Assembly: GCA_003164375.1 (NCBI GenBank)
Contig: PLTE01000108.1
Span: 1-38,459 of the forward strand
Reading direction: 5' to 3'
DNA from: Hyphomicrobiales bacterium
Lineage (GTDB): Bacteria > Pseudomonadota > Alphaproteobacteria > Rhizobiales > Xanthobacteraceae
DNA length: 38,459 bases
Positions 18,876 to 33,500 of this stretch are shown here, piece by piece; position 1 is the stretch's first letter, and every line of letters starts with the position of its first letter. Both the position numbers and the translations under genes were made by a program. The notes beneath the pieces were generated by a model that did not search any database, had not been told where the DNA came from, and was given only the letters and a program-made list of their open reading frames with translations.

Positions 18876-20387
18876 ATGAGCATCACCGGGCCCGGGTCGA
18901 TCGCCGCTCTGAATATTCAGGCGGTCAACAATATGAATAACCAGCTCAACACGTTGAGCACGGAACTTGGCACCAACCAGGCGGCCCAAACCTATTCCGG
19001 CCTCGGCTCGCAGGCCGGCGTGGCGCTGGCCTTGAACGCGCAGCTTTCGGCGATCAACGGTTATAGCAACACCGCCACGACGGTTGGCACGACGCTGAGC
19101 GTCGCGCAATCGACGTTGACGCAACTCGGCAGCAGCGGAAGCTCGGTTCAACAGGCGATCAACCAGCAAGGCGCCTTCAGCCTGAACAGCAACGGACAGA
19201 CGACGACTCAGGCAGCCGCCGCCACGCAGCTCGGCGAGATCCTGTCCCTACTCAACACCCAGGTCGGCAATAATTATATTTTCTCGGGCAGCGCGACGAC
19301 CCAGCCGTCAGTCGCCAGCATGTCCGACATCCTCAACGGCAATGGCGCGCAAGCGGGTTTCACGCAGGTGATGGCGCAACGCCTGCAGGCCGATCAAGGC
19401 GCCAATGGGCTCGGCCGCCTGGTCATTCCGGCGCCCTCAGCCTCGACTGTTTCGATCAGCGAGGATGCCGCCAACTCGCCGTTCGGGTTCAAGCTTGCGA
19501 GCGTGAATTCGTCGCTGACCGGTGCGACCGTCACCGGCCCGACCGGCTCGCCCGCGTCGATCTCGGTCGATTTGGGCTCCAATCCCAATGCCGGCGATTC
19601 GATCGCGTTCGGCCTCACGCTTCCCGACGGCTCAAGCCAAACCATCACGCTACAAGCCACCACGGCCTCGCCGGCGGGCACCAACCAGTTCACCATTGGT
19701 GCGACGCCCGCAGACACCGCAACCAATCTGCAGGCGGCGCTGAGCGCCGCGGTCGGCAATCTCGATCAGACCGCGCTGCCGGCTGCATCCGCCGTCGCCG
19801 CGGCCGATAACTTCTTCAGCTCAGACCCACCCCAACGGGTCGCCGGGCCGCCCTACGACTCGGCCACCTCATTGGCAAACGGGACTTCGGCGAACACCGT
19901 ATTCTGGTACACCGGCGAAAACGGCAGCACGCCGGCGCGGCAGACCGCGACCGCCCAGGTCGGTCCCTCGACGACCATCGATTACGGCATGCGCGCCAAC
20001 GAGCAGGCGATCAGCACGCTGGTCGCGAACGTGGCCGTCCTTGCGGCAACGACCTATTCGGCAAGCGATCCGAACGCCGGAGCGAATTACCAGGCGTTGA
20101 GCCAGAAGGTGACGGCGAACCTCGACGGTCAATCCGGTACCCAGTCGATCGACGATATCGAGGCCGATCTTGCGAATTCGCAGACCACGGTCAGCAACGC
20201 CACCGCACTGAATACGCAGACGCAAACCACGCTACAGGACATGATGCAAAACATCGACGGTATCAATCAAAACCAGATCGGTGAACAGATCCTAACATTG
20301 CAGAACAGTCTGTCAGCCTCGTTGTCGGTGACCGCACGCATGGCGCAGCTCAGCCTGGTCAATTTTCTGGCGCCGTCAACGGGCTAA
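18876..20387 (+). CDS. flgL: flagellar hook-associated protein 3 FlgL (flagellin-fold)
   Basis: The ATG directly abuts the flgK stop. Flagellin-like N- and C-terminal helices are present (…QILTLQNSLSASLSVTARMAQLSLVNFL), and the gene sits immediately after flgK. Confidence 0.8.
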   Translation: MSITGPGSIAALNIQAVNNMNNQLNTLSTELGTNQAAQTYSGLGSQAGVALALNAQLSAINGYSNTATTVGTTLSVAQSTLTQLGSSGSSVQQAINQQGAFSLNSNGQTTTQAAAATQLGEILSLLNTQVGNNYIFSGSATTQPSVASMSDILNGNGAQAGFTQVMAQRLQADQGANGLGRLVIPAPSASTVSISEDAANSPFGFKLASVNSSLTGATVTGPTGSPASISVDLGSNPNAGDSIAFGLTLPDGSSQTITLQATTASPAGTNQFTIGATPADTATNLQAALSAAVGNLDQTALPAASAVAAADNFFSSDPPQRVAGPPYDSATSLANGTSANTVFWYTGENGSTPARQTATAQVGPSTTIDYGMRANEQAISTLVANVAVLAATTYSASDPNAGANYQALSQKVTANLDGQSGTQSIDDIEADLANSQTTVSNATALNTQTQTTLQDMMQNIDGINQNQIGEQILTLQNSLSASLSVTARMAQLSLVNFLAPSTG

Positions 20388-20417: not shown

Positions 20418-21371
20418 TTACCCGGCACGATCGATCGGCGTTTCACTGCGGCGGGTTGCAGTTCTGACGAATATTGAATCGGCGGCGCAGGTCGCATTGC
20501 GGCCAAAATTGTCGGTAAAACGCGTGTCGACCAGATACTCGCCGGGATGCGCACCGACGAAGTCGCGGATCGCCTGCCGTTTCACGTCGCTGTCTTCGAC
20601 GACCAGATAATCGCCGGGCGACAGCACCGGGTGGAACTGTTCAAGCACGCCGATGACGTTGTGATGCGCGTCCTCGACGACGAGCCATGGATGCGGCTCC
20701 GAGTGGAGAAGGTCGGAATCGAACAGCCGTTCCGGGGCGGAACAATCGCCCTGATAGAATTTGACGTGCGGATACTCCATCTCGACCTTGACCCGGTCGA
20801 CCGAATGGACCTGCCCTTGGATGCCGCTCAGCGCCAGATTATCTGCAAACCAGACGGCACTTGCGCCGAGGCCGGATCCGATTTCGAAAATGGTTTGCGG
20901 GCGCAGCTCCGCGATCAGCGCCGGGTACATGGCGAAATCGAAGACGTTCTTCATCAGCGGCGTGCCGCGCCAGCGCATCAGTGACGGTGCGCCCTGGCAG
21001 GTCAGCAGCACGTCGAGGCCGAACTCGGTGCCGAACCGCGGATGATAATGGACACCCGATCGCTCGCGCTCGGAATACTCGACCAGATGGCCCTGCACCC
21101 AGCGATCGAGGAACAGCCGCAGGCGCATCAAGTCCCATTGCAGGCTAAGGTCTTGCGCGGGCGGCCGCGCGGCATTTTCGCGGACGCTGTCCTCCCACGA
21201 ACGGCTCGGATCGAAAGCGATCAAGCGCGTCAGGACGCGCGTAAACCAACTGTCGAAGATGCTGTGCAGGCCATTTTGTTCGCGCTCAACCTTGTCGCGC
21301 ATTTCACTCAAGAATTTGAGCGCAGCCGCCTTCAAGGCGTCGCCGGAAATCAAAGTTGCCTCGGTCGTCAT
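20418..21371 (-). CDS. CmcI-family (cephalosporin hydroxylase / rhamnosyl O-methyltransferase family) SAM-dependent methyltransferase
   Basis: WRGTPLMKNVFDFAMYPALIAELRPQTIFEIGSGLGASAVWFAD matches the CmcI core pattern (G.P..K...D...Y..L..E.KP..IIE.G...GGSA.W.A) from memory. A later VVEDAHH motif is also present. Confidence 0.7.
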   Translation of the reverse strand: MTTEATLISGDALKAAALKFLSEMRDKVEREQNGLHSIFDSWFTRVLTRLIAFDPSRSWEDSVRENAARPPAQDLSLQWDLMRLRLFLDRWVQGHLVEYSERERSGVHYHPRFGTEFGLDVLLTCQGAPSLMRWRGTPLMKNVFDFAMYPALIAELRPQTIFEIGSGLGASAVWFADNLALSGIQGQVHSVDRVKVEMEYPHVKFYQGDCSAPERLFDSDLLHSEPHPWLVVEDAHHNVIGVLEQFHPVLSPGDYLVVEDSDVKRQAIRDFVGAHPGEYLVDTRFTDNFGRNATCAADSIFVRTATRRSETPIDRAG

Positions 21372-21398
21372 GGGATTTCCTTCCCGACCGGCACGCGC

Positions 21399-22244
21399 CT
21401 AAGCACCGGCGAATTGCGACGCCAGATCGCCGCAAAACGTCATCGGGCCGACGTGGTTGAGCTTGCTTCCAAGATCCGCCCAGATCTCGCCGCCGAGTTC
21501 AATCCAGCGCTTGCAAAAGGCGAAATCCTCGCTGAGGTAGGTGCCGTCATCGGCGATCATGCATTCGAACAAAGCGAAGCGGTTGTCGCTTGCGGTCGCG
21601 GCATCGACGGAATGATCGCGTTTGTAGCGCAGCTGCGGATAATGTGCGCACATTTTTGCCAGCGCTTGGCGCCGGATCATGAGAAAACCGGTGCCGGCGT
21701 ACCGCACCTTGACGAAGCCACCTTTCTCGATGACGGCGTTGGGATCGTCGACCTCGAACACATATTTTAAGGCCGCGCCCGCCGCGTTGGGTCGCCCGCC
21801 CTCGATCGTCGTCTTCACCCTGTCCCAGTCGATCCGCTTGATCGGATAGATCGCGGCACACATGTCGGCGCCGCATTCGATCAGACGCAGCACTTGATCC
21901 GGCTCGAAGCCGATGTCGGCGTCGATAAACAACAGGTGGGTGGCATCCGGATCGTCCAGGAATTGGGAGATCAGGCTCGCCCGCGCCCGCGTGATCAGCG
22001 CGTCGCCGTCCTTGAACAAGATCTTGAGGTTGAAGTCGCTATAGGCGCGGATCAACTTTTGCAGCTTAAACAGCGAGGCTGCATAAAGCACCGAAATCTG
22101 TCCGCCGAAGCACGGTGTGGCGATGACGAGATTGACGGTGTTAGGGGCCGTGGCGGTTCCCGCCAGCTCGGCGGCGGTCCTGCCGGCGGGAGGCGCTGCG
22201 CGGGCGCCGCCGGCCTTGTGATCGGACTCCGAGGCAGTCGACAT
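21399..22244 (-). CDS. putative GT-A-fold (family 2-like) glycosyltransferase
   Basis: VNLVIATPCFGGQISVLYAASL...ITRARASLISQFLDDPDATHLLFIDADIGFEPDQVLRLI. This is the usual GT-A layout with a DxD motif (DAD). The exact family was not identified. It is probably co-transcribed with the methyltransferase downstream (27-nt gap). Confidence 0.5.
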   Translation of the reverse strand: MSTASESDHKAGGARAAPPAGRTAAELAGTATAPNTVNLVIATPCFGGQISVLYAASLFKLQKLIRAYSDFNLKILFKDGDALITRARASLISQFLDDPDATHLLFIDADIGFEPDQVLRLIECGADMCAAIYPIKRIDWDRVKTTIEGGRPNAAGAALKYVFEVDDPNAVIEKGGFVKVRYAGTGFLMIRRQALAKMCAHYPQLRYKRDHSVDAATASDNRFALFECMIADDGTYLSEDFAFCKRWIELGGEIWADLGSKLNHVGPMTFCGDLASQFAGA

Positions 22245-22339
22245 CGAGGTTCGTTCCTTCGTCGATCCGGCGCTGTCGGGTGTTGCGGCGCGACGGAGCG
22301 ACTTTGTAATTATGGTTAAGCAATAGCGAAGAGAAATGG

Positions 22340-22354
22340 TTAATGGCGACTTAA
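22340..22354. promoter_or_regulatory. CtrA-type box TTAA-N7-TTAA
   Basis: TTAAtggcgacTTAA is an exact match to the core consensus. It lies in the AT-rich divergent region between the GT-A gene (start 22244) and the flagellin gene (start 22629), about 100 nt upstream of the GT-A start. Confidence 0.55.
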
Positions 22355-22628
22355 GTGACTACGTAAAAAATCGATGAAGTTGTTAAAACTCATGCCGCTA
22401 CTGCATCGCCGGGTCTGAAGCGTCAGTGCTCATAGCGTCGGGCATTGATTTAGATCATAGCGTTAGTTTCGCCGCCGAAAACCAAATCCAGTACGGGTTT
22501 ACACGTCTTTAAACGAATTGCGTCAAACCTTCGGCAGCCGATCGGTTTGATCGGAACCTGCACTCGCCGGTACGGCACGTACAGCAAGTGCACGCCAGTA
22601 CGTCCTGTAACCAGAAGGGTACGCGAAT

Positions 22629-24467
22629 ATGTCTGACATCACCTTGAGCAGTGGCATTCGGCAGAACTTGCTGGCCCTGCAGAACACGTCCAACGACTTG
22701 AATACCACGCAGGAACAGCTTGCGACCGGTAAGAAGGTCAATACGGCGTTCGACAATCCGACCTCCTATTTCACCTCGCAGTCGCTGACCAACCGGTCCA
22801 ACGACCTGAGCGCGCTTCTCGACCAGATCGGTCAGGCGCAGCAGACGTTGAACGCGGCCAACGACGGCCTCACCGGCTTGACGAGCCTGCTCGAACAGGC
22901 GCTGTCAACAGCGCAGCAGGCGCAACAGGCGACCACGGGCACCGTGACCTATAGCGGCACGCAAACCGGCAGCGCAATTGTCGCCGACACGACGCAAGCC
23001 GTCAGCACGACCAGTTTCGCCAGTGCGGTCAGCGCTTCAACGGCTTCGGTGCAGACCAAGTCGACGTTCGACTCCGCCGGCATCGGCCAGCTGACGAGCG
23101 GCGATACCCTGACCTATTCGCTCGCCGGCACCACGGTGACGGCCACGTTCGGCGCCGCGACCGATACGACCACCAACACCTTCAGCAACGTCGCCGGCCT
23201 GATCAGCGTTCTGCAGAGCGGCACCGGCGCCAGCGGCAACCTCAGCGCTGTGGCGAGCATCACCAACGTCGGCGGCAACGTCCAGGTGCTCGGTGACGAT
23301 CTCACCCACAACCTGACGACAAGCGCCACCAGCACCAACCTCACCGCCGGCAATTTTACAAGTAACACCTCGGCTGCCACGCTTGGCGATGCGCTGACGA
23401 TTTCTGACGGTGAAGGTCACACGTCGTCATTCTACTACGTTGCCGCCAATGCCGTTTCTGCAAGCGACACCTTCACGAGCTCGGCCAATCTTGTCAGCGC
23501 CATCAGCGGCTCCAACCTGGGCAGCACGGTCACAGCGACCGTTCCAAGCTCCGGCGCCAACAATGGCAAACTCGTGCTCAGCAGCCCGGATGGGGCCATC
23601 ACAGTCGGTGGAGCTTTCGGCAACACCGATCTGGGTCTGTCCTCGACGGCTTACAAAAACAACTACAACTCGACATTGGCAGGGCTTGCCGCCGACAGCA
23701 CGCTGACGATCCAGGTCGGCACCGACGCGGTAAATACGCTGACCTTCGGCACCGGCAACGGCCAGATCTCGACCCTGGCGGGGCTCAATAGCGCGCTTTC
23801 GGCCATCGGAGATATCTCCGCATCGGTCAACTCGCAGGGCAAGATCGTGTTGGCGCCGACAAGCTCGAACATCGTCACCATCGGCGGCACCGCCGGGACG
23901 GTGAGCTCGCTCGGCTTCTCCAGCGGCGTCACTACGCCGACTGCGACGGTCGTCACCCCGAGCTCGACCCGCGCCACGCTGCAGAGCAACTATAATGCCC
24001 TGCTGACGCAGATCGATCAGCTCGCCGGGGACTCGTCCTATAACGGCGTCAACCTGCTCGCCGGCAACAACCTGACGGTCAACTTTAATGAGAACGGCAC
24101 CAGCGGTCTGACGATCGGCGGCGTCAACTTCAGCTCGTCGGGGCTTGGACTGTCGGCGATCAGCGGCAACGGTTTCCAGGACAACACCAACATTGCGTCC
24201 ACGGAAACCGCGATCAACAACGCAATCACCAACGTGCGGGCCCAAACCGAGACGTTCGGCACCAACTCGTCGACCATCTCGACCCGCCAGACGTTCGAAA
24301 CCAACCTGATCAACACCCTGCAGACGGGCGCCAGCAATCTCGTGCTGGCCGATCAGAACCAAGCTAGCGCCAACTTGCTGACCGAGCAAACCCAGCAGCA
24401 GTTGGAAATCTCCGCACTGTCCATCGCCAATCAGGCGGACCAGTCGGTGCTCAAGCTGTTCGGCTAA
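22629..24467 (+). CDS. fliC: flagellin (large 612-aa type, as in Bradyrhizobium thick-flagellum FliC)
   Basis: N-terminus MSDITLSSGIRQNLLALQNTSNDLNTTQEQLATGKKVNTAFDNPTSYFTSQSL. C-terminus QASANLLTEQTQQQLEISALSIANQADQSVLKLFG. The central domain is Ser/Thr-rich and repetitive. The RBS is GAAGGG, and an intrinsic terminator follows. Confidence 0.9.
   Translation: MSDITLSSGIRQNLLALQNTSNDLNTTQEQLATGKKVNTAFDNPTSYFTSQSLTNRSNDLSALLDQIGQAQQTLNAANDGLTGLTSLLEQALSTAQQAQQATTGTVTYSGTQTGSAIVADTTQAVSTTSFASAVSASTASVQTKSTFDSAGIGQLTSGDTLTYSLAGTTVTATFGAATDTTTNTFSNVAGLISVLQSGTGASGNLSAVASITNVGGNVQVLGDDLTHNLTTSATSTNLTAGNFTSNTSAATLGDALTISDGEGHTSSFYYVAANAVSASDTFTSSANLVSAISGSNLGSTVTATVPSSGANNGKLVLSSPDGAITVGGAFGNTDLGLSSTAYKNNYNSTLAGLAADSTLTIQVGTDAVNTLTFGTGNGQISTLAGLNSALSAIGDISASVNSQGKIVLAPTSSNIVTIGGTAGTVSSLGFSSGVTTPTATVVTPSSTRATLQSNYNALLTQIDQLAGDSSYNGVNLLAGNNLTVNFNENGTSGLTIGGVNFSSSGLGLSAISGNGFQDNTNIASTETAINNAITNVRAQTETFGTNSSTISTRQTFETNLINTLQTGASNLVLADQNQASANLLTEQTQQQLEISALSIANQADQSVLKLFG
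23076..23918 (+). repeat. three divergent copies of the same module forming the flagellin central domain
   Basis: The clearest copy is DSTLTIQVGTDAVNTLTFGTGNGQISTLAGLNSALSAIGDISASVNSQGKIVLAPTSSNIVTIGGTAGTVSSLGF. Two weaker copies start at GDTLTYSLAGTTVTATFG and GDALTISDGEGHTSSFYY. Confidence 0.6.
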
Positions 24468-24496
24468 TTTCTTCTGGTACAGGTCTTCTGGTGAAG

Positions 24497-24525
24497 GCGG
24501 CGGGGCGAAAGCTCCGCCGCTTTTT
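24497..24525 (+). terminator. intrinsic terminator after the flagellin gene
   Basis: GCGGCGGGGC-GAAA-GCTCCGCCGC forms a 10-bp stem (one G-U pair) with a GAAA tetraloop, followed by TTTTT. It lies 30 nt after the flagellin stop codon. Confidence 0.85.
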
Positions 24526-24592
24526 CGTGGCGAATGGTCGGAGGCTGCACGGTGTCCTGCTCGTTATTGTGTGGCCGCTATTTTTCGGACGC

Positions 24593-24608
24593 TTAGCAAG
24601 CCCTTAAC
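24593..24608. promoter_or_regulatory. near-consensus CtrA box TTAG-N7-TTAAC upstream of flbT-flaF
   Basis: TTAGcaagcccTTAAC has one mismatch. It ends 41 nt upstream of the flbT GTG. Confidence 0.35.
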
Positions 24609-24648
24609 CCGCATCCGTGACGATGGATCGCCTCATAAGGATTCACGC

Positions 24649-25389
24649 GTGGCCCTAAAGATCGAGCTCAAGCCTAACGAACGCATCCTCCTCGGCGATT
24701 GCGTCGTCACCAATAACGGCCAGCGCACGCGTCTCATGGTCGAGGGGAAGGTGCCCATTCTGCGTGAAAAGGACATCATGTCGCTGGGCAGCGCCAATAG
24801 CCTGGCGAAACTCATCTATCTCGCTGTGCAGTTCATCTACACGGCCAAGCGACCGCAGGACCATCACGCGCTTTACGTCCGGCTGGCGGATGAATTTGTG
24901 AAACGCGCGCCCAGTGCGAAGCCATATATTGAGAGCATCAACAATCGAATCTTAACAGGCGAGCCGTATAAGGCGCTAAAGGAAGCGCGCAAGCTCATTG
25001 CCTACGAAAAGGAGCATCTCGACATGCATTACGCCAGCAACGCCTACGCGAAGACCGCCATTGACACGGCAGGCCCGCGCGAACTCGAGGCGAATTTGCT
25101 TTTGCAAGCTGCGGCGAAGTTGCAGGCTGTTCATGATTCGTGGCGCGATAAGCCGTCCGGCCTCGACGATGCAATCCTGTACAATCGCCGGCTTTGGACG
25201 GTATTCCTCGACGCGGTGACGAGCGAAGGCAACAGGTTGCCGGCCGCGGTCCGCGAGAATATCAGGCGGCTCGGCGTTTTCGTCATGGGGGAGACGTTCT
25301 CGCTGATGACCAATCCGAAGCCGGATCACCTGACGTCGATCATCAAGATCAATCGCGGCATCGCCGCCGGCCTGCGCGGCAAGGCGTAA
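24649..25389 (+). CDS. flbT: FlbT-FlaF in-frame fusion ORF (flagellin translation regulator pair)
   Basis: GTG at 24649 with AAGGA 7 nt upstream. The FlbT-like part is (M)ALKIELKPNERILLGDCVVTNNGQRTRLMVEGKVPILREKDIM...AKLIYLAVQFIY. It runs with no stop codon into a FlaF-like part, MHYASNAYAKTA...PRELEANLLLQAAAKLQ...YNRRLWTVFLDAV...LPAAVRENI. The track ORF starts at an upstream GTG (24571). Confidence 0.75.
   Translation: MALKIELKPNERILLGDCVVTNNGQRTRLMVEGKVPILREKDIMSLGSANSLAKLIYLAVQFIYTAKRPQDHHALYVRLADEFVKRAPSAKPYIESINNRILTGEPYKALKEARKLIAYEKEHLDMHYASNAYAKTAIDTAGPRELEANLLLQAAAKLQAVHDSWRDKPSGLDDAILYNRRLWTVFLDAVTSEGNRLPAAVRENIRRLGVFVMGETFSLMTNPKPDHLTSIIKINRGIAAGLRGKA
25024..25389 (+). CDS. flaF: possible independently translated FlaF (internal start within the fusion frame)
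   Basis: ATG at 25024 with a strong AAGGAG 9 nt upstream, exactly where stand-alone FlaF proteins begin (MHYASNAY...). Same frame as the flbT part. Confidence 0.4.
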   Translation: MHYASNAYAKTAIDTAGPRELEANLLLQAAAKLQAVHDSWRDKPSGLDDAILYNRRLWTVFLDAVTSEGNRLPAAVRENIRRLGVFVMGETFSLMTNPKPDHLTSIIKINRGIAAGLRGKA

Positions 25390-25442
25390 GAGACGGCGTA
25401 TAGTTCGGTTTATTGGGGCAACGGCGAGACGCGTTTTCGCTC

Positions 25443-25466
25443 GCATTGCCAACGATCCGGCAATGC
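25443..25466. terminator. hairpin between convergent flbT-flaF and the asnB-like gene
   Basis: GCATTGCC-aacgatcc-GGCAATGC forms a perfect 8-bp stem. There is no U-tract. Confidence 0.35.
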
Positions 25467-25494
25467 TTGAACCGCTGCAAGCGCGCCAGCGCGA

Positions 25495-27042
25495 TCAGGC
25501 GGCGCGCGGGACATCCAGTCGAAGCCGCCCGCGCAGATGCGGTATGCGACTTACATCCATCCTTGCCGCGAGCATCCGCATATAAATCAGCTCTTCTTTG
25601 GTTGCTATTGCAAAATCCGCGAATTCGCGTTGCCCGTCGTGGAGATCTGCGTCCGACAGCGACGTTTCGAAAAGATCGAGCCAGCCGGATTCTTCCACGT
25701 CGCCGTCCGCGCCCTCATGAAACAGCATCTTTTGCCGATCGCGAATGCAAGTCGGTAGCTCGGAAGGATACAGGTCATAGAGCGCTCGTAACGGCGCCTT
25801 GCCGATCGGGGCATTGCTCGTTTGTCGCACCAAACAGGATTCATCGAGCTCACTCGCATAATCGACGACCGTTTGATCGAGGAACGGCTCGCGTATTTCG
25901 AGTTGGAATTGCATCGAACAGCGATCGACCCGTTGAAGATTGGCGCGATGCATCATGCCCAAACATTGCTTCTGCATATCGCGGCCGCCGCCGTCAGGCC
26001 GGGTAAAAGCCCGTTCGAGGGGCGAATAGCCTGCGAATAATTCATCGGCGCCTTCGCCGCACAGCGCGACGCGGAAACCGTCTTGATGTATGCGCTGCGA
26101 GAGAAGATAGGTGTAAAGACTAGGACGGATCACCGAGGGCTCGAACGTCTCCACGGTATCAACGACCGTCTCGATGAGGGGGAGCGTCTTGGTGCAATGC
26201 GCTTCAACGGCCACCTCGCGCAGGTTGAGACCGGTCTCCTCCGCATAATGTTTGGCGTAAAGATGATCGGGCGCATTGCACCCGACCGCGATGTAGCCCG
26301 GCATGGCCGGAGAAAATCTGCGCGCGTAATGCATAACAAGCGTGCTATCGATGCCGCCGCTGAACAAGGCCGCGACCGGAAGGTTCGCGGGCACGCGGAT
26401 GCGCACGGCTTCCGATAGAATTCGGTCCAGTTCCTGGGGCGAGGCGGCGCTCGAGGTTGTTGGGGATGGCAGGTTGTAATGGCGCCCGCAGAAATCACGG
26501 GTCAGCAAATGGCCAGGCGGCAACAATAAGACGGCGTCGCCATCGGTCGCATCCAGGAGCGGTCGGATTTCCGAGCAAAACAGAAAGCCCTTGGGCGACT
26601 GGATGAGATAAAGCGGCTTTACGCCGAAAGGGTCGCGCGCGGCCAAGAACTCGCCGGTCGCCGTATCGATCGCAACGAAGGCATACATGCCGGCCAGGCG
26701 TTTGATCCCGGCTTGGCCCCACGCTCGCAGCACATTCGCGACAACTTCCGTGTCGCATTGCGTGCGGAAACGCACGCCGAGCGCCTCCAATTCCCGACGT
26801 AGAACGTCGTGATTGTAGATCTCGCCATTGAACGAGACGAGAAAGCGCTCATCGAAGGAGGCTTGCGGCTGCGCGCCGTTTGCCGCGTCTACAATGCGCA
26901 AGCGGCGTGTGCACATCGCGGTGTTGTTTCCGACCATGACGAGTGGGTCGGTGACGTCGCCCCGATGCAGCATACCCGCGATCAACTGCCGGACTGCCGA
27001 TCCGGCGTCATCCCAATCGATAGCAACCGCTATGCCGCACAT
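25495..27042 (-). CDS. asparagine synthase (glutamine-hydrolysing) family amidotransferase
   Basis: N-terminal MCGI (Cys2 Ntn nucleophile), PP-loop motif FSGGIDSTLV, and 515 aa of AsnB-like layout. Confidence 0.85.
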   Translation of the reverse strand: MCGIAVAIDWDDAGSAVRQLIAGMLHRGDVTDPLVMVGNNTAMCTRRLRIVDAANGAQPQASFDERFLVSFNGEIYNHDVLRRELEALGVRFRTQCDTEVVANVLRAWGQAGIKRLAGMYAFVAIDTATGEFLAARDPFGVKPLYLIQSPKGFLFCSEIRPLLDATDGDAVLLLPPGHLLTRDFCGRHYNLPSPTTSSAASPQELDRILSEAVRIRVPANLPVAALFSGGIDSTLVMHYARRFSPAMPGYIAVGCNAPDHLYAKHYAEETGLNLREVAVEAHCTKTLPLIETVVDTVETFEPSVIRPSLYTYLLSQRIHQDGFRVALCGEGADELFAGYSPLERAFTRPDGGGRDMQKQCLGMMHRANLQRVDRCSMQFQLEIREPFLDQTVVDYASELDESCLVRQTSNAPIGKAPLRALYDLYPSELPTCIRDRQKMLFHEGADGDVEESGWLDLFETSLSDADLHDGQREFADFAIATKEELIYMRMLAARMDVSRIPHLRGRLRLDVPRAA

Positions 27043-27231
27043 GACGCCCCCGCGCGTGCCGATTCAGTCTAAGTCACTGGAATTACAGCGACAATACAGC
27101 CGAAACCCTGACGCTAGCGTAGATCGCTAGGGTTAACGGTTGGTTCCAGTCGTTTGAGGCGGCGCGGGCAGCTTTTGAGCCCCGCTACGCGGTCGGCTCA
27201 GGACGAAGATCCACCTCAAGTGCGGTTGGTA

Positions 27232-28134
27232 TCAGGCCAGCAGATCGAGCAACGAGCCCGACGAGCCGCTGCTCGCCAAGAGGGTTTCGGCAGTGCCGCC
27301 GGTCTGCAGCGCGAGGGCGGAATTAAACAGGACGGCCGCGGGGGAACTGGCGGCAGTGCTGGTGGACGACCCTGTCGAACTGCTTGCGGCGCTCGTGGAC
27401 GATCCTGCCGCGCTCGAGGAACTTGAAGAAGTGGAACCGGAGGCGCTGGAGGAACTGGAAGAGTTGGCAGCGCTGGAAGTGGGGGCGGTCGGCTGGAAAC
27501 TGGAGTTCTGGGCGCCGAAGCCGACGCTTGATGCAAAAACGCCCCCGACCGAGATCGAATCGGTGAGATTTTTGCCGGTGAGAACCAGGTCGCCGCCGGC
27601 ATTAAGCGACGCCGTCACCTGGGCATTGGCGGCAACGTTTGGATTGTTGATGGCATTGATCAGATCCTGAACCGTATCCGTGCCCGTCGACGCGAAGGTC
27701 GTCGTGTTGGTGCCGTCACTGACGGTGATCGTGCCATTCTGGGGAATCCCGAGCGTTAACAGCGAGGTACTCGCGGAAAGCGGCACCGTGCCGGTTCCGG
27801 TTGCCGGTGCGCCGGTCGTTGGAGCGTTGGACGTAGACCCGCTGGAACTGGCTTGTGAGGCTTGCACTGCGCTTTGCAATGCGGCGGTAAGTTGGGCTTG
27901 GACGCGCGTTTGCGCTTCCTTGGTCGCAATGGCCGCCAAGCCCGACGCTTCGTTGCTCACGGCGCTGCCTAATCCTGTAATCAGCGCATCGCTTAACGAG
28001 GAAGTCTGATTCTCGGTCTGAACCTGGCTCCAATAGGTCTGGTCCTGTTGCCAGAACGTCTGGCTGCTTCCTATGCTTCCGATACTCATGGACTGCGACG
28101 CCTTGCCAGACCGGTCTCCCCTGCGGTCATTCAT
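27232..28134 (-). CDS. orphan Ser/Thr-rich flagellar-cluster protein carrying one hook/flagellin-type module and a poly-Ser tract
   Basis: 300-aa ORF; an alternative ATG lies at 28089 (MSIGSIGSS...). Residues ~121-207 align closely with FlgE module 1. A poly-Ser segment covers residues ~219-264. No signal peptide is visible. Function unknown. Confidence 0.6.
   Translation of the reverse strand: MNDRRGDRSGKASQSMSIGSIGSSQTFWQQDQTYWSQVQTENQTSSLSDALITGLGSAVSNEASGLAAIATKEAQTRVQAQLTAALQSAVQASQASSSGSTSNAPTTGAPATGTGTVPLSASTSLLTLGIPQNGTITVSDGTNTTTFASTGTDTVQDLINAINNPNVAANAQVTASLNAGGDLVLTGKNLTDSISVGGVFASSVGFGAQNSSFQPTAPTSSAANSSSSSSASGSTSSSSSSAAGSSTSAASSSTGSSTSTAASSPAAVLFNSALALQTGGTAETLLASSGSSGSLLDLLA
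27343..27480 (-). repeat. poly-Ser low-complexity coding tract
   Basis: TSSAANSSSSSSASGSTSSSSSSAAGSSTSAASSSTGSSTSTAASS in the orphan protein. The plus strand shows the complementary GAA/GGA-rich periodicity. Confidence 0.8.
27514..27774 (-). repeat. single copy of the module in the orphan protein
   Basis: NGTITVSDGTNTTTFASTGTDTVQDLINAINNPNVAANAQVTASLNAGGDLVLTGKNLTDSISVGGVFASSVGFG is closest to FlgE copy 1. The similarity extends into the following GAQNSSFQPT versus GAGQNSFSPT. Confidence 0.7.
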
Positions 28135-28182
28135 GCACCATTGCAGTTAACAGACCGTCGATTCCCTAACGTTTACCACCGG

Positions 28183-28190
28183 TTAACCAT
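28183..28190. promoter_or_regulatory. CtrA half-site-type 8-mer TTAACCAT
   Basis: Exact TTAACCAT in the divergent region between the Ser-rich orphan gene (minus) and TPR-GT 1 (plus). Confidence 0.35.
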
Positions 28191-28285
28191 CATGGCCGAC
28201 TTTGCGGTAAAGGCACCGTGGGCGGGAGCCGCTCCTCGGCGGTATGGTGCTCCCGTCGCCAGTCCGAGGCTGCAGGCAGGATTCC

Positions 28286-30190
28286 ATGGCGAAGCAGGCG
28301 ACCGCGAGGCTTTCGCAACTCGGCCGCTCTTTCGAGCAGGGGCTGGCACTGCACCGGGGCGGACGGCTCGCTGAGGCCGACCGAATCTATGAAGCCATTC
28401 TCGCGGCCGATCCGCGCCACTTCGATGCGCTGCATCTGTCCGGCGTTCTCAGAAATCAACAGGGCCGGTCTGTCGAGGCTCTGCATTTGGTTTCGGCGGC
28501 ATTGAACATCAAGTCCGGATCGGTGGACGCGCTTGTGAGTCATGGCGTGATCCTTGATGCGCTCAAGCGCCATGAAGAAGCGCTGGCGAGCTTCGATCGA
28601 GCGCTGGCGGCGCGTGCCGGCGACGCTACCTTGCACTATAACCGCGGCAATTCGCTCAAAGGTCTCGGCCGCTACGCGGAGGCGTTGGCGAGCTACGATC
28701 GCGCGCTCGCGCTTGCGCCGGATCTCGCCCCCGCCCACCACAATCGCGGCAGTACCTATGCGGAGCTCGATCGGAACGATGAGGCGCTGGCGAGCTTCGA
28801 CCAGGCGCTTTTGCTGTGCCTTGAGCGGGCCGGCATCAAGATGGAGAATGGCATCTCCCTGGCAACGATTGATCGCGGCGATGAATTGTTTGCAAGGCTC
28901 CGTCAAGCGCTCGCCGCCGATCCCAACAGTGCCGACATACTGAGCAATCGCGGCAAGGTTCTCAACCGGTTCAAACGCTACCATGAGGCGATTGCGTGCT
29001 TTGACGCGGCGCTGGCGCTTCGCCCCGACCAAGCGGACACGCTCTGTCATCGCGGCGACGCATGCGCAGGGATCGGCCGCTACGACGATGCGTTTGCGAA
29101 TTTCGCGGAGGCGCTTTGCGTTGCGCCGAATTTCGCCGATGCGCATCTTAAGCGCGGCAATGCTTTGGTCGAGTTGAACCGAATGGACGAAGCGATGCGC
29201 AGCTTTAGCGCCGCTGTAGCGATCAAGCCGGACAACGCGGACGCGAACTTCAACGAAGCGCTGACCCGGCTGTGCCTGGGCGATTTTCGCCAGGGTTGGA
29301 AAAAGTATGAATATCGGTGGGAAAGGGCTGAATGGGCGAAGGACCGGCCAAATTATCCGCGTCCGATGTGGCGCGGAGAGCAGGAGCTGCAGGGCAAGAC
29401 AATTCTTCTTGTCGCCGAACAAGGCTTTGGCGACGCCATCCAATTCGCACGCTACGCACCGCTGTTAGCAGCGCTCGGCGCAAAGGTGTTGCTTGGCGTC
29501 CGGTCCCCGCTCACTGCACTAATGGCAACCGTACCCGGTGTCTCGCAAGTGATAAGCGCGGGTGAGACTCTGCCCCCCTTCGATCTCTACTGCCCGCTGT
29601 TGAGCCTGCCATTAGCGTTCGGAACCGAACCGGCAACGATACCGGCCACGGTCCCCTATCTGCGAGCTTCTGAAGAGCGCATCGCCAAATGGCGCGGCAG
29701 ATTACCGGACAGTGGCCGGCTGCGAATCGGAATTTGCTGGGCCGGCATAAGCGGGCATCCCAACAATCACCGACGTTCGATACCGCTCGAGCGCTTCGCC
29801 ACGATATTGTCGGCGCCGGGCGTCGACTTCGTCAGTCTGCAAAAGGATGTCGGCGAGTCGGACGCGACGATCCTGAGCGCACACGGCGTAAATCAGCTTG
29901 GGCAGGAATTCGCGGATTTTGCCGATACCGCCGCCGTCGTCGCGATGCTCGATCTCGTGATCTGCGTCGACACTTCGGTCGCGCATCTTGCCGGCGCGAT
30001 GGGCAAGGCCGTCGGCGTGCTGATACCGTTTTCGCCGGACTTCAGGTGGATGCTCGACCGCACCGACAGCCCTTGGTATCCGACCATGCGGCTGTTTCGG
30101 CAACCCGCGATCGGCGACTGGGACGGACCGCTCGATCGGCTGCGCCAGGAACTTTCCGCTCTCGGAAGCCGTCCGCTCAAGCCGCGGTGA
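28286..30190 (+). CDS. TPR-repeat protein fused to a GT9-like (heptosyltransferase-fold, GT-B) glycosyltransferase domain
   Basis: ATG at 28286 (MAKQATARLSQLGRSFEQGLALHRGGRLAEADRIYEAIL...). There are multiple 34-aa TPR units (…A..Y..AL...P....A..NRG...). The C-terminal domain carries KTILLVAEQGFGDAIQFARY, RIGICWAG and DTSVAHLAGAMGK...SPWYPTMRLFRQ. Confidence 0.75.
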   Translation: MAKQATARLSQLGRSFEQGLALHRGGRLAEADRIYEAILAADPRHFDALHLSGVLRNQQGRSVEALHLVSAALNIKSGSVDALVSHGVILDALKRHEEALASFDRALAARAGDATLHYNRGNSLKGLGRYAEALASYDRALALAPDLAPAHHNRGSTYAELDRNDEALASFDQALLLCLERAGIKMENGISLATIDRGDELFARLRQALAADPNSADILSNRGKVLNRFKRYHEAIACFDAALALRPDQADTLCHRGDACAGIGRYDDAFANFAEALCVAPNFADAHLKRGNALVELNRMDEAMRSFSAAVAIKPDNADANFNEALTRLCLGDFRQGWKKYEYRWERAEWAKDRPNYPRPMWRGEQELQGKTILLVAEQGFGDAIQFARYAPLLAALGAKVLLGVRSPLTALMATVPGVSQVISAGETLPPFDLYCPLLSLPLAFGTEPATIPATVPYLRASEERIAKWRGRLPDSGRLRIGICWAGISGHPNNHRRSIPLERFATILSAPGVDFVSLQKDVGESDATILSAHGVNQLGQEFADFADTAAVVAMLDLVICVDTSVAHLAGAMGKAVGVLIPFSPDFRWMLDRTDSPWYPTMRLFRQPAIGDWDGPLDRLRQELSALGSRPLKPR

Positions 30191-30214: not shown

Positions 30215-30667
30215 CTACAGCGTGCGGCTGACGGCGAGCGGCCGGCCGTGCTTGGGATTGGGCGCGGCGGTCCGCCCGGTCGCGCCGTAGACCTGCGGCG
30301 AAGCTTTGCGGGCGAGGTCGCTCGACAGCCGCCGCATGATTCCCTCCGAGACCGCGTGCGCGGTCGCCAGCACGATCATGTTCTTCTGCAGCACGGCGCG
30401 GAAGATCTCCTGCACACGCACGAGCGCCGCGCAGCGCGCCGGCACGGTCCGCAGCAGAAATTTACCGCTCACCTTCAACTGCTCGCCGGCCGCGAACAAT
30501 TGCCCGGCGAGTTCCGCCTTGGCCGGTTCGAGCGCGCAGGCGGCGCGGATCTTGCCGGCGTGCATCAGCAAGGTTTCCTGTTCGACAAGGCCGGTGAGCC
30601 TCTCGATCAGCGCGGTGAGCTGTTCGATGGCCTGTTCGGCCTCCGCGGCCGTCGTGATGGGTTTCAT
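30215..30667 (-). CDS. flagellar protein, FlgN/FlbY-like (uncertain)
   Basis: Trimmed to the ATG at 30667, which has an ATGA overlap with the upstream rod-binding gene. The 150-aa helical protein reads MKPITTAAEAEQAIEQLTALIERLTGLVEQETLLM... It sits after flgI and the flgJ-like gene, as in Caulobacter flgI-cheL-flbY. The family call is by context. Confidence 0.5.
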   Translation of the reverse strand: MKPITTAAEAEQAIEQLTALIERLTGLVEQETLLMHAGKIRAACALEPAKAELAGQLFAAGEQLKVSGKFLLRTVPARCAALVRVQEIFRAVLQKNMIVLATAHAVSEGIMRRLSSDLARKASPQVYGATGRTAAPNPKHGRPLAVSRTL

Positions 30668-30993
30668 GACGGGGATAGTCCCTGTTCTTTGAGCAATGTG
30701 TCGTAGACCTTGGGCGCGATGCCGATACCGCCCGCCTTGGCGAGTGCTTTGGCGAACTGGTCGATCGCGAAGGAGCGCCACACTTTCAACGCGCCGCTGC
30801 CGCCCATCGGACCGTCGCCGTCCACGCCGGTGAACATTTCCTGGAACATGTTGCTGAGGAACATCGACTCGAAATTTTCCGCGCCGGCCTTCGCCTTGCT
30901 CCTGATCTTCAGCGCGGCCTGAGCCTGTGCGCTGGTCGCGCTGCCGATCGAGGATAGTGATGCGCCGAAATCGACGGGGCTTATGCTCGACAT
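30664..30993 (-). CDS. flgJ: flagellar rod-binding protein (FlgJ N-terminal-domain-like, no muramidase domain)
   Basis: AENFESMFLSNMFQEMFTG...FAIDQFAKALAKAGGIGIA is the Rod_binding pattern. The ATG at 30993 overlaps the flgI TGA (TGATG), and a GTG at 30996 is also possible. Confidence 0.75.
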   Translation of the reverse strand: MSSISPVDFGASLSSIGSATSAQAQAALKIRSKAKAGAENFESMFLSNMFQEMFTGVDGDGPMGGSGALKVWRSFAIDQFAKALAKAGGIGIAPKVYDTLLKEQGLSPS

Positions 30994-32114
30994 CACATCA
31001 CCTCAATATCGGCCTGGATGGCGCCGGCGGCCTTGATCGCTTGCAAGATCACGATCAGATCGCGCGGCCCGATGCCGAGCGCATTGAGGCCGTCGACAAT
31101 CTGTTGCAGCGACACGCCTTCCTGGACCAGCGCTAGCCTCTTGCCCTCTTCCTGCACGCCTACTTGCGTGCGTGGCACGGCGACGGTGCGGCCGCGCGAC
31201 AGCGGCGCGGGTTGACTCACCTGCGGCGATTCCGAGATCGTGACCGTGAGATTTCCCTGCGCCACCGCCACCGTCGAGACGCGCACGTCGCGGCCGATGA
31301 CGATGACGCCGGAGCGTTCGTCGATGACGACCTTGGCGACTTCGTCCGGCTCGACCTGCAATTGCTCGATCTCGGTCAGCATGGCGACGACGTTTTGCGG
31401 AAATTTCTTCGGCAGCGTGAGTTGCACGGTCGAAGGGTCGAGCGGCTCGGCGACTGCCGCGCCGATATAGTCGTTGATGGCAACAGCGATGCGTTTGGCC
31501 GTCGTGAAGTCGGCGTTGCGCAGCGCGAGCCGCAGCTGACCGACGCTATTAAGCGCGAATTCGATTTCGCGCTCAATGATGGCGCCGTTGGGCAATCGCC
31601 CGACGGTCGGTACGCCGCGGGTGATCTTGGCCGCCTGGCCCTCGGCCTGGAAGCCGCCGATCGAGAGCGATCCCTGCGCGACCGCATAGACATTGCCGTC
31701 GGCGCCGAGGAGGGGAGTGACCAGCAAGGTGCCGCCTTCCAAGCTCTTGGAGTCGCCCATGGCCGAGGCCGTCACGTCGATTCGCGTACCCTGCGTCGCG
31801 AAGGGCGGCAGGTCGGCCGTGACCATGACGGCGGCGACGTTGCCGGTACGGATCTGCTGGCCGCGGATGTTGACGCCTAGCCGTTCCAGCATCGCCTGCA
31901 GGGACTGCTTGGTAAAAGGCGCGTTGTTAAGTGTGTCGCCGGTGCCATTAAGGCCAACAACGAGGCCGTAGCCGATCAACTGGTTCTGTCGCACGCCCTC
32001 GATATTGGCGAGGTCTTTGATGCGCGACGTCGCCATCGCCGGCGAGATGGCCGACGATCCAGCACAGCTGACAGCAACCAGCGCGGCAAGCGCGGTTCGA
32101 AAAGGCCCTCTCAT
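30993..32114 (-). CDS. flgI: flagellar P-ring protein FlgI
   Basis: Signal peptide, then RIKDLANIEGVRQNQLIGYGLVVGLNGTGD...ALGIGPRDLIVILQAIKAAGAIQADIEVM. Confidence 0.95.
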   Translation of the reverse strand: MRGPFRTALAALVAVSCAGSSAISPAMATSRIKDLANIEGVRQNQLIGYGLVVGLNGTGDTLNNAPFTKQSLQAMLERLGVNIRGQQIRTGNVAAVMVTADLPPFATQGTRIDVTASAMGDSKSLEGGTLLVTPLLGADGNVYAVAQGSLSIGGFQAEGQAAKITRGVPTVGRLPNGAIIEREIEFALNSVGQLRLALRNADFTTAKRIAVAINDYIGAAVAEPLDPSTVQLTLPKKFPQNVVAMLTEIEQLQVEPDEVAKVVIDERSGVIVIGRDVRVSTVAVAQGNLTVTISESPQVSQPAPLSRGRTVAVPRTQVGVQEEGKRLALVQEGVSLQQIVDGLNALGIGPRDLIVILQAIKAAGAIQADIEVM

Positions 32115-32286: not shown

Positions 32287-32302
32287 GGCAATTCTTGCCG
32301 GC
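32287..32302. promoter_or_regulatory. second copy of the GGCAATTCTTGCCGGC dyad element
   Basis: Identical 16-mer to 14811-14826. It lies about 100 nt upstream of the flgI sigma54 -24 element and about 45 nt upstream of the fliX ATG. Confidence 0.5.
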
Positions 32303-32318
32303 CGCTTTTTACCGCCCG

Positions 32319-32326
32319 TTAACCAT
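32319..32326. promoter_or_regulatory. CtrA half-site-type 8-mer TTAACCAT upstream of fliX
   Basis: Exact TTAACCAT 20 nt upstream of the fliX ATG. The position is very close to the start codon, so its role is uncertain. Confidence 0.3.
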
Positions 32327-32345
32327 GACGCGACACCTTATTAGT

Positions 32346-32756
32346 ATGCGTGTTTCTGGACCGACTCGGACGTCGCTCGCGACAGCGCCCAGCGTGGCGC
32401 GGTCTTCGCCAAGCGGCACCTTCTCGCTGGGCGGCGCTGACGCCCCACAGGCGCCGAGCGCGGCCGTGGCATTACGAACCGTGGGTGGAATCGACGCGCT
32501 GATTGCGCTGCAAGGCATCGAAGACCCGGTGGAACGCCGACGCCGCGTGGTCAAAAATGGCCGCCGGGCACTTGATGCCCTCGACGAACTTAAGCTCGGT
32601 CTGCTCGCGGGCACGCTCGACCAGAGCACGATGTTGCGGCTGAAATCGGTGGCCGCAGACCTGCACGATATGTCCGGCGACGACCGGCTCGATCAGGTCC
32701 TGGCCGAGATTGATCTGCGGGTGGCGGTTGAACTGGCCAAAGCCGGTATGTCCTGA
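32346..32756 (+). CDS. fliX: flagellar assembly regulator FliX
   Basis: The ATG at 32346 gives MRVSGPTRTS..., the typical FliX start. The C-terminus is LDQVLAEIDLRVAVELAK. The gene is divergent from flgI, as in Caulobacter. There is no obvious SD sequence. Confidence 0.8.
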   Translation: MRVSGPTRTSLATAPSVARSSPSGTFSLGGADAPQAPSAAVALRTVGGIDALIALQGIEDPVERRRRVVKNGRRALDALDELKLGLLAGTLDQSTMLRLKSVAADLHDMSGDDRLDQVLAEIDLRVAVELAKAGMS

Positions 32757-32971
32757 ATCGGGAAAATCCCTAAATTATTGAAGATTATGGGATCTTCTTG
32801 CCGTTCCGGCCGTGCGGAAAGCCCGGCGGCTGGGTCGAATGGCGCCACAAATGCTCCACTACGGCATCCGTCTGCTGCGGTATTCGGCTCCCGATGGTTG
32901 TTGTCACTGTCACAGACCTTGGATATAAGCCGCGGCGCGAGGGGGGCCTCGCGAGTGGAGGGCGGGAGTAC

Positions 32972-33466
32972 ATGCTCATGCAATTGTTGAAGGGCAAAAA
33001 CGGTCGAGTTGCCGAAAAGCCCCAAAAAAACGGCAAGGGCGCTGAAACAAACCTGCGGCAGACAGAAGGACAGTATCGTCCGACCGACAAAGAGCCGTTC
33101 ATGAACGAGCGCCAGCGCGAGTATTTCCGATTGAAGCTGCTCGATTGGCGCGAGGACATCCTCAAAGAGGCCAAGGAGACGCTCCAGCATCTCCAGGATG
33201 AGAGCCAAAATCATCCCGACCTCGCCGATCGGGCCTCGTCGGAGACCGATCGGGCGATCGAATTGCGCGCCCGGGATCGCCAGCGCAAGCTGATCGCCAA
33301 GATCGACGCCGCCTTGCAGCGTATCGAAGACGGCACTTACGGCTATTGCGAGGAGACCGGCGAGCCGATCACGCTCAAACGGCTCGAGGCCCGCCCGATC
33401 GCCACATTGTCGATCGAGGCCCAGGAGCGCCATGAACGGCGCGAGCGCGTCTACCGCGACGACTAA
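32972..33466 (+). CDS. dksA: RNA polymerase-binding transcription factor DksA
   Basis: YRPTDKEPFMNERQREYFRLKLLDWREDIL...DLADRASSETDRAIELRARDRQRKLIAKIDAALQRIEDGTYGYCEETGEPITLKRLEARPIATLSIEAQERHE. The ATG at 32972 follows GGAGGGCGGGAG. The track ORF starts far upstream. Confidence 0.9.
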   Translation: MLMQLLKGKNGRVAEKPQKNGKGAETNLRQTEGQYRPTDKEPFMNERQREYFRLKLLDWREDILKEAKETLQHLQDESQNHPDLADRASSETDRAIELRARDRQRKLIAKIDAALQRIEDGTYGYCEETGEPITLKRLEARPIATLSIEAQERHERRERVYRDD

Positions 33467-33500
33467 GCGCCGCCGGGTTTTCCGGTCTGCGATGAAACCC

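Follow-up and report, generated by a model that had tools for sequence, protein, structure and literature searches.

A conserved gene island of variable content around the flagellin gene of uncultured soil Xanthobacteraceae probably encodes a FlmG-class flagellar O-glycosylation system

Islands for flagellin glycosylation occur in Pseudomonas, Campylobacter and Clostridioides; they encode the biosynthesis of their own sugars and rely on transferases of the Maf, Fgt or GT2 type. In Caulobacter, the 596-aa protein FlmG combines a tetratricopeptide repeat (TPR) domain that binds flagellin (residues 1-313) with a GT-B glycosyltransferase (GT) domain (residues 309-596) (PMC7591256), and the choice of the donor is determined by the GT-B domain (10.1101/2022.03.25.485807; PMC7591256). 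The two characterised FlmGs, from Caulobacter crescentus and Brevundimonas subvibrioides, are 43% identical (10.1101/2022.03.25.485807), and FlmG enzymes have been described as independent of an adaptor and narrowly distributed, being confined to Caulobacterales (10.1101/2023.12.03.569772). Here, a gene island around the flagellin gene of an uncultured soil bacterium (Hyphomicrobiales, Xanthobacteraceae) was analysed. The window, meaning the whole stretch of DNA analysed, comprises 38,459 nt of contig PLTE01000108.1 (GCA_003164375.1) with a GC content of ~62% and holds an alphaproteobacterial flagellar cluster. Two proteins with a TPR domain followed by a GT-B domain (TPR-GT1 and TPR-GT2), a 281-aa GT-A-like protein, a CmcI-type methyltransferase, an AsnB-type amidotransferase and a Ser-rich protein are encoded among the flagellar genes. 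We regard this set as probably representing a conserved, strain-variable cytoplasmic flagellar O-glycosylation island of the FlmG class.

Open reading frames (ORFs) of the window were assigned with Pfam (E<=0.01) and NCBIfam. As the FlmG reference, a 598-aa ortholog (start MSRKSAL) was used, encoded in a metagenomic Caulobacter-type locus that was found via the published flmG 5' primer (PMC7591256 supplement); there, a cytidylyltransferase gene and a gene for a GNAT acetyltransferase resembling flmH adjoin the TPR and GT gene. In both window proteins TPR families cover approximately the N-terminal half, followed by the C-terminal GT domain. TPR-GT1 is collinear with the FlmG ortholog through both domains (26% identity, E 1e-38), and TPR-GT2 aligns collinearly over nearly its full length (26% identity, E 3e-35). 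The GT domains alone also match the ortholog over their whole length (28% over 317 aa, E 2e-29, for TPR-GT1; 25% over 319 aa, E 2e-22, for TPR-GT2), and the two window proteins share 44% identity over their main alignment. The TPR then GT-B layout, the GT-domain homology and the flagellar gene context are those of the FlmG class. Since the identity is 25-28%, compared with 43% between the characterised FlmGs, the similarity is below orthology level, and by these alignments TPR-GT1 and TPR-GT2 are distant members of the class that form a separate subfamily and not FlmG orthologs. The initial annotation had contrasted the locus with FlmG-type systems; that contrast falls away, because the island contains the transferase class that had been called missing.

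The description of both proteins as GT9-like stands only in so far as a weak and short PF01075 (GT9) signal is present (18.8 bits for TPR-GT1, below the cutoff of 22, and 24.9 bits for TPR-GT2); it covers ~30 of 247 profile positions in each case, and membership in GT9 does not follow from it. In TPR-GT2 the match lies at profile positions 174-205, the C-terminal nucleotide-sugar motif. In sequence searches of the PDB, no solved glycosyltransferase was matched by the GT-domain query or by the family profile; a sulfatase match at chance level was all that the GT domain alone returned, and with the family profile there were TPR hits only.

To place the island in its lineage, species-representative genomes were scanned, and 419 of them carry a relative of the 281-aa GT-A protein. 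Locus counts given here refer to the best-matching 80 of these 419 species-level loci, which were searched by tblastn with the window proteins; all 80 come from metagenome-assembled genomes of uncultured Xanthobacteraceae or Alphaproteobacteria. The GT-A gene (69-88% identity) lies within the flagellar cluster in 80/80 loci, and it forms a divergent pair with the flagellin gene in 72 of the 73 loci having upstream sequence; the gap between the two genes has a median of 385 bp. This pairing survives inversion of the segment relative to flgL, which is seen in many loci. A TPR-GT1-type hit was found in 75/80 loci and the Ser-rich protein gene also in 75/80, and the Ser-rich gene and a TPR-GT gene are a divergent pair in 73/75. 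A TPR-GT2 gene is present between dksA and flgH in 44 loci (58-78% identity). The clustering with flagellin is far beyond chance, as the gene set recurs around flagellin in 80/80 loci. The earlier proposal of a modification system linked to the flagellum is borne out by this conserved synteny with flagellar genes.

Island span and module counts were taken from the 60 loci with both flanks. The island is 6.3-17.9 kb long and holds one TPR-GT gene in 32 loci, two in 24 and three in 4. Across all 80 loci the methyltransferase gene is present in 40 and the AsnB gene, always within the island, in 30. The two genes go together (both in 24 of the 60 loci, neither in 25, a single one in 8 and 3; Fisher's exact p 4e-7, uncorrected for phylogeny), and they behave as a linked optional module of patchy accessories rather than core metabolism. 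In the islands of other species, genes encoding a GT7-like galactosyltransferase, class I and TylF methyltransferases, a PhyH dioxygenase, three kinds of sulfotransferase, a TPR+GSCFA protein and a DUF5672+methyltransferase protein were found, and all of these alternative genes fall between flgL and flgI. Such swapped content marks a hypervariable island of glycan-tailoring genes that is tied to the flagellin gene. As in flagellin glycosylation islands generally, transferase and tailoring genes stand by flagellin and their content varies among relatives.

Sulfotransferase genes in the flagellin islands of sister species are located at 8770-9606 of locus L035, 2671-3696 of L053 and 2872-4122 of L011. 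They suggest that sulfated flagellar glycans or sulfated flagellar proteins occur in the clade.

The methyltransferase was confirmed as a CmcI-family protein (PF04989 RMNT_CmcI, E 8.8e-15, 55.4 bits vs cutoff 23.2), and its nearest solved structure is CmcI (2br3, E 2e-16). With a score of 53.6 (cutoff 400) the NCBIfam rhamnosyl O-methyltransferase equivalog was missed, so the assignment goes no further than the family. The AsnB-type amidotransferase call likewise held, with TIGR01536 at 279.5 bits vs cutoff 267.1, GATase_7 and Asn_synthase domains, an N-terminal MCGI that provides the Cys nucleophile, and a match to E. coli AsnB (1ct9, E 6e-39); the PRK09431 AsnB equivalog was not reached (274.9 vs cutoff 499). 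Both proteins are probable tailoring enzymes, the AsnB-type enzyme amidating a carboxyl group. No literature was found on flagellin glycosylation with AsnB-type enzymes.

The 281-aa protein itself gave no Pfam hit, and its homologs, which number in the thousands, are all labelled hypothetical and lack Pfam domains. The motif D108-x-D110 (DxD) is invariant. A profile of diverse homologs matched the GT-A protein STIV A197 (E 2e-4) in an alignment across the DxD, and a few homologs weakly matched Anp1 (7/46) and GT2/GT21 models (1-2). The AlphaFold model reached a predicted local distance difference test (pLDDT) score of 43 with a shallow alignment (74-88% identity) and of 87.4 with a deeper one. 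A Foldseek search with the model returned A197 (2e-9), the glycosyltransferase domain of human LH3 (~5e-8), and then GlfT2, SpsA and mannosylglycerate synthase. The label "GT-A-like" is thereby upheld by profile and by predicted fold, and the protein appears to be a GT-A-fold glycosyltransferase-like member of an unnamed family, outside the named families of Pfam or CAZy type, and the universal core gene of the island. Homologs with 40-43% identity are encoded between fliJ and motB in Komagataeibacter saccharivorans p92689 (L094, 5974-6738) and on an Aristophania vespae plasmid (L095, 5629-6402). These Acetobacteraceae plasmid flagellar clusters are a second, independent flagellar association of the family. 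A flagellar location of the family everywhere was considered and rejected, given stand-alone members in Aliidongia, Rhizobium, Burkholderia, Mesorhizobium and others; the homologs in Burkholderia and Mesorhizobium are more distant and non-flagellar.

Relatives of the TPR-GTs were also found outside the clade. On plasmid p3 of Azospirillum brasilense Sp7 (NZ_CP033315.1; L098, 4561-22977), an uncharacterised TPR-GT is encoded inside a pseG/GNAT/nucleotidyltransferase/pseI cluster, ~8 kb upstream of the gene for a 670-aa flagellin; the cluster also holds fatty-acid-type genes, namely those for ketoacyl-ACP (acyl carrier protein) synthase III, ACP and an acyl-CoA ligase. The GT domain of this protein is 49-50% identical to those of the two window TPR-GTs. 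When the window proteins were searched against the Sp7 locus by tblastn, flagellin and the TPR-GTs were matched, and no homolog of the GT-A protein, the Ser-rich protein, CmcI or AsnB was found. The polar flagellin of Sp7 is reported to be glycosylated (PMC12826043), and the Sp7 TPR-GT is likely a FlmG-like enzyme for it. An equally close TPR-GT is encoded on pAB510f of Azospirillum sp. B510 (L099, 4252-19870); its neighbours are a 2751-aa calcium-binding protein and the genes of a type I secretion system, and the region, which is not linked to pse genes, holds SIS-domain and GDP-fucose synthase genes. In Burkholderia arboris (L101, 6380-20425), three tandem TPR-GTs precede a 2369-aa ORF, a Paraburkholderia copy stands in an unrelated context, and Azospirillum replicons carry up to 12 TPR-GT copies. 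The GT domains of TPR-GT1, TPR-GT2 and the A. brasilense and B510 proteins are 45-52% identical to one another and 25-31% identical to FlmG. Because of the homologs in non-flagellar contexts the subfamily is not flagellin-specific; it seems to be a general class of protein glycosyltransferases that are guided by their TPR domains and count flagellin among their clients, and there are hints that it glycosylates large adhesins as well as flagellin.

These relatives bear on the alternative that the island does not modify the flagellum at all. The TPR-GTs and the GT-A protein would then act on other secreted proteins, lipopolysaccharide or exopolysaccharide, or the TPR proteins would serve in assembly, AsnB would make asparagine, and the flagellar co-location would be gene order inherited within one clade. 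We consider this quite improbable. It draws on the TPR-GT homologs that adjoin giant secreted proteins or lie in unrelated contexts (Azospirillum B510, Burkholderia arboris, Paraburkholderia), on GT-A homologs of 47-60% identity that stand alone, away from flagella, in Aliidongia, three other genomes and a Rhizobium chromid, on AsnB passing the generic asparagine synthase model TIGR01536, with which its role could be metabolic, and on the origin of all 80 loci from one family-level clade, by which part of the synteny is shared ancestry. However, the adjacency persists through inversions and insertions, unrelated tailoring enzymes have been inserted repeatedly and exactly between flagellar genes in different species, the GT-A family has a flagellar link in another order as well, the TPR-GTs share homology with an enzyme whose glycosylation of flagellin has been demonstrated, and AsnB and the methyltransferase behave as patchy, linked accessories.

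The same four points count against a FlmG-class flagellar O-glycosylation island, as do the low identity (25-28%) of the TPR-GTs to FlmG and the finding of no gene for sugar-nucleotide biosynthesis, either in the window or in the 10-kb surroundings of any of the 80 loci. In addition, a 2021 review of rhizobial motility mentions glycosylation of the Bradyrhizobium subpolar flagellum as a possibility alone (PMC8429497), and no cultured representative and no biochemical or mass-spectrometric data for the lineage were found in the literature. No publication describing this gene set was found in the literature searched, and none on Rhodopseudomonas or Bradyrhizobium flagellin glycosyltransferases.

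Flagellin is presumed to be the main acceptor. Ser and Thr together account for 30% of flagellin, 24% of the hook protein FlgE and 35% of the Ser-rich protein. Flagellin residues 287-422 align with FlgE residues 280-414 (39% identity, E 3e-11), and residues 94-201 of the Ser-rich protein (108 residues) align with FlgE residues 231-335 (55% identity, E 2e-18). One surface module of ~100-140 residues is common to the Ser-rich protein, FlgE and flagellin and is conserved across relatives. In the initial annotation, flagellin and hook had been credited with Ser/Thr-rich repeated modules: the composition and a module shared between the proteins were found, and the internal repeats were not, since BLAST self-comparison of flagellin, FlgE, FlgL and the Ser-rich protein revealed none. 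Nor could the "DUF1522-type" designation of the flagellin be confirmed, as Pfam at E<=0.01 gave Flagellin_N and Flagellin_C alone. FlgE is a possible additional acceptor because it carries the module shared with flagellin and the Ser-rich protein, and on these alignments the module is a plausible common acceptor or recognition element.

Three parts make up the Ser-rich protein: an N-terminal region and a central module, both conserved, and a variable tail rich in Ser. It had been called an orphan, a term that does not fit a protein present in 75/80 loci with a Flagellin_IN motif and the hook module. Its profile found no relative in the PDB, Pfam gave the Flagellin_IN motif alone, and a profile comparison with flagellin was not significant (probability 11%). 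Gene conversion between the Ser-rich and FlgE modules was examined as a source of their similarity and rejected: the identity is 49.8% both to FlgE of the same genome and to FlgE of other genomes, so the similarity seems to be ancient and not maintained by gene conversion. The Ser-rich protein could serve as a second substrate or as an adaptor. It is possible, though unlikely, that this protein and not flagellin is the key partner of TPR-GT1, either as a heavily glycosylated substrate that leaves through the flagellar apparatus or as a GlfM-like adaptor that presents hook or flagellin modules to the transferase. The divergent gene pair in 73/75 loci, the hook module at 55% identity and the variable tail with 35% Ser+Thr speak for such a partnership, and GlfM in the Maf-2 system is a precedent for an adaptor (10.1101/2023.12.03.569772). 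In contrast, FlmG works without an adaptor (10.1101/2023.12.03.569772), no homolog of known function or structure was found in the Pfam and PDB profile searches, and both export and binding are hypothetical. The adaptor role, drawn by analogy, is speculation.

For the donor sugar, the initial annotation had noted no pse, leg or neu biosynthesis gene and had read the enzyme set as a sign of a different glycan chemistry. On the genes, family scans agree: no family of pse/leg/neu type was found among the window ORFs scanned with Pfam and NCBIfam, nor did the window and the flanks (<=10 kb) of the 80 loci yield any pse/leg/neu, cytidylyltransferase or GNAT gene. This absence is no proof of a different chemistry, since the Caulobacter pseudaminic-acid gene tags are spread over the genome away from flmG (CCNA_00233/00234, 01523, 02946/02947, 02961; PMC7591256) and the close Sp7 homolog is encoded inside a pse cluster. 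The need of an AsnB-type enzyme for a carboxylate suggests an acidic sugar as the most likely donor. Pseudaminic acid in an amide form has been reported on Caulobacter-modified flagellin (10.1101/2023.12.03.569772), in line with the amidation of an acidic sugar by such an enzyme. The leading single candidate for the donor is, tentatively, a nonulosonic acid that is made elsewhere.

A non-nonulosonate glycan, at the heart of what the initial annotation proposed, is a serious rival chemistry, albeit a doubtful one. The same island would then operate with FlmG-like GT-Bs that use a hexose, deoxyhexose, heptose or uronic acid donor and with the GT-A protein extending the chain, and the product, methylated and amidated here and sulfated in sister species, would be unlike any described flagellar glycan; we rate this as rather unlikely. 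It is favoured by the lack of pse/leg/neu, cytidylyltransferase and GNAT genes in the window and the 80 islands, while such genes are adjacent at the Caulobacter-type flmG and A. brasilense loci, and by the weak GT9/heptosyltransferase signal of the TPR-GT domains, which the FlmG ortholog does not give at E<=0.01. Furthermore, a DxD GT-A protein implies a nucleoside diphosphate (NDP) sugar, the methyltransferase family includes rhamnosyl O-methyltransferases, and the region of the close B510 homolog holds SIS-domain and GDP-fucose synthase genes. Set against this, absence from a 38-kb window and 10-kb flanks is not genome-wide absence, as the widely separated pse tags of Caulobacter illustrate, and the sole subfamily member seen beside flagellin in an annotated genome, that of Sp7, sits in a pse cluster. 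Moreover, the carboxylate needed for AsnB-type amidation would be supplied by a nonulosonic acid, and the GT9 match spans ~30 residues.

For the FlmG-class island, the substrates, the order of the steps and the chemistry are inferred here from the observed gene families, FlmG homology, GT-A fold, conserved synteny and variable island content. The TPR domains of both TPR-GTs would bind unfolded flagellin before export, and they may also bind the hook and Ser-rich proteins, which share the surface module with flagellin. The C-terminal GT-B domains would attach a nucleotide-activated sugar to Ser/Thr in the central region, which is exposed at the surface, and the GT-A enzyme would add a second sugar, or extend the glycan with one, from an NDP-sugar, in keeping with its DxD motif. 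The glycan would then be O-methylated by the CmcI-type methyltransferase in the approximately half of related species that carry the module and, where the AsnB-type enzyme is present, its carboxyl group would be turned into an amide. The sugar-nucleotide supply would be encoded outside the window.

The features of the window are listed in Table 1. All ORFs named in the initial annotation exist at or near the positions it gave, and, the designations discussed above apart, their family calls hold according to Pfam, NCBIfam and a gene caller. An identical AsnB protein is encoded on 12 metagenomic contigs with the same gene order as the window, and on these the gene caller, in agreement with the initial annotation, gave a 634-aa TPR-GT1, a 285-aa Ser-rich protein and a 246-aa FlbT-FlaF protein.

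Table 1. Coordinates of the features in the 38,459-nt window
Feature	Position	Strand	Remarks
AAA-family ATPase	13850-14854	-	directly upstream of flgE
flgE, hook protein	14944-16965	+	Pfam FlgE domains
flgK	17016-18875	+	Pfam/NCBIfam
flgL	18876-20387	+	Pfam/NCBIfam
CmcI/rhamnosyl-O-methyltransferase-family methyltransferase, 317 aa	20418-21371	-	PF04989; 27 bp downstream of GT-A gene
GT-A-fold glycosyltransferase-like protein (predicted fold), 281 aa	21399-22244	-	fold and profile evidence; without own Pfam hit
Divergent intergenic region, GT-A gene/flagellin gene	22245-22628	.	384 bp
Flagellin, 612 aa	22629-24467	+	Flagellin_N and Flagellin_C
FlbT and FlaF domains, single ORF	24571-25389	+	PF07378 E 6e-35, PF07309 E 3e-29, one frame
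AsnB-type glutamine-dependent amidotransferase, 515 aa	25495-27042	-	TIGR01536
Ser-rich protein, 285 aa	27232-28089	-	ORF reaches 28134; Flagellin_IN motif
TPR-GT1 (TPR and GT-B), 634 aa	28286-30190	+	ORF start 28244; TPR families, weak GT9
150-aa protein	30215-30667	-	no Pfam hit
Rod-binding FlgJ-like protein	30664-30996	-	Pfam/NCBIfam
flgI	30993-32114	-	Pfam/NCBIfam
fliX	32295-32756	+	Pfam/NCBIfam
dksA-like gene	32972-33466	+	zinc-finger; Pfam/NCBIfam
TPR-GT2 (TPR and GT-B), 549 aa	33598-35247	+	between dksA-like gene and flgH
flgH	35428-36198	-	Pfam/NCBIfam
flgA	36202-37185	-	Pfam/NCBIfam
Rod protein	37200-37988	-	Pfam/NCBIfam

The FlbT-FlaF ORF joins the domains of a flagellin translation regulator and a secretion chaperone: FlbT (repressor) and FlaF (activator/chaperone) are fused in the window into one 246-aa product, and they are apparently two adjacent genes in some relatives (L011, L046). 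The AAA-family ATPase is found with 73-96% identity in 33 related loci, constantly at the edge of the flagellar cluster. The DksA-like zinc-finger gene, between fliX and TPR-GT2, is conserved in 51 related loci; a 272-aa ORF antisense to it (32693-33511, minus strand) gave no Pfam match and is probably not a real gene. Five related loci (L022, L048, L056 at 6633-7748, L060 and L064) encode a DUF2336 protein, its gene lying a few kb upstream of the GT-A gene in 4 of the 5.

The system is real, widespread and uncharacterised, and its logic is familiar. New are the occurrence of an FlmG-class flagellar island beyond Caulobacterales, its constant pairing with a GT-A enzyme from an unnamed family, the conserved module protein and the exchangeable tailoring modules. 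A distant FlmG branch among the flagellar genes of a very large clade of uncultured soil bacteria (the GT-A partner occurs in 419 species-level genomes), with a related member in Azospirillum, would extend TPR-guided cytoplasmic protein glycosylation beyond its known range, and an unnamed GT-A family is linked to flagella in two alphaproteobacterial orders. With its islands of swapped methyl, amide and sulfate modules, the clade is a natural test set for the diversification of flagellar glycans, for example under phage or protist pressure, and the module in hook, filament and Ser-rich protein is a concrete candidate recognition element. A bolder version, for which we hold only slight expectation, is a modular system in which FlmG-like and unnamed GT-A enzymes decorate the shared module of filament, hook and exported Ser-rich protein with a non-nonulosonate glycan that is diversified by methylation, amidation and sulfation. 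If true, it would amount to a hypervariable glycocode of the flagellum, with hook glycosylation and the first flagellar glycans that are sulfated or amidated.

Among known systems, the FlmG system of Caulobacter and Brevundimonas shares with the window an N-terminal TPR and a C-terminal GT-B domain in one cytoplasmic protein encoded among flagellar genes, in an alphaproteobacterium that uses FlaF and FlbT. It differs in that the window lineage lies outside Caulobacterales, has 1-3 paralogs in the island and a further one between dksA and flgH, always adds the GT-A enzyme and the Ser-rich module protein, and has optional methyltransferase, amidotransferase or sulfotransferase genes and no adjacent pse/leg genes. 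The Sp7 locus is alike in its close TPR-GT, large flagellin gene and glycosylated polar flagellin, whereas its TPR-GT is embedded in a pse cluster and the island of the window has no pse genes. The islands of Pseudomonas, Campylobacter and Clostridioides are similarly blocks of transferase and tailoring genes by flagellin, variable among strains or species and with methyltransferases included, whereas the window island has FlmG-like transferases and a new GT-A family, with no sugar-nucleotide pathway present. FlmQ, of Burkholderia cenocepacia, transfers a viosamine derivative rather than a nonulosonic acid. It (BCAL0111) is a predicted flagellin glycosyltransferase linked to motility (PMC4462625), a role comparable to that proposed for the TPR-GTs. 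Tripartite Maf-2/GlfM flagellin sialylation (10.1101/2023.12.03.569772) resembles the island in a possible accessory protein encoded beside the transferase, and Maf-1 uses TPR for flagellin binding; Maf itself is a GT-A enzyme (MAF_flag10), and no Maf domain was found among the window proteins. The GT9 heptosyltransferases and the TibC/AAH autotransporter heptosyltransferases (cited in PMC7591256) share with the TPR-GTs the weak PF01075 match, some TPR-GT homologs are named "ADP-heptose:LPS heptosyltransferase" by JGI, and some members stand beside giant secreted proteins; in contrast to these enzymes, the TPR-GTs have no hit to any solved GT9 structure and no ADP-heptose genes nearby.

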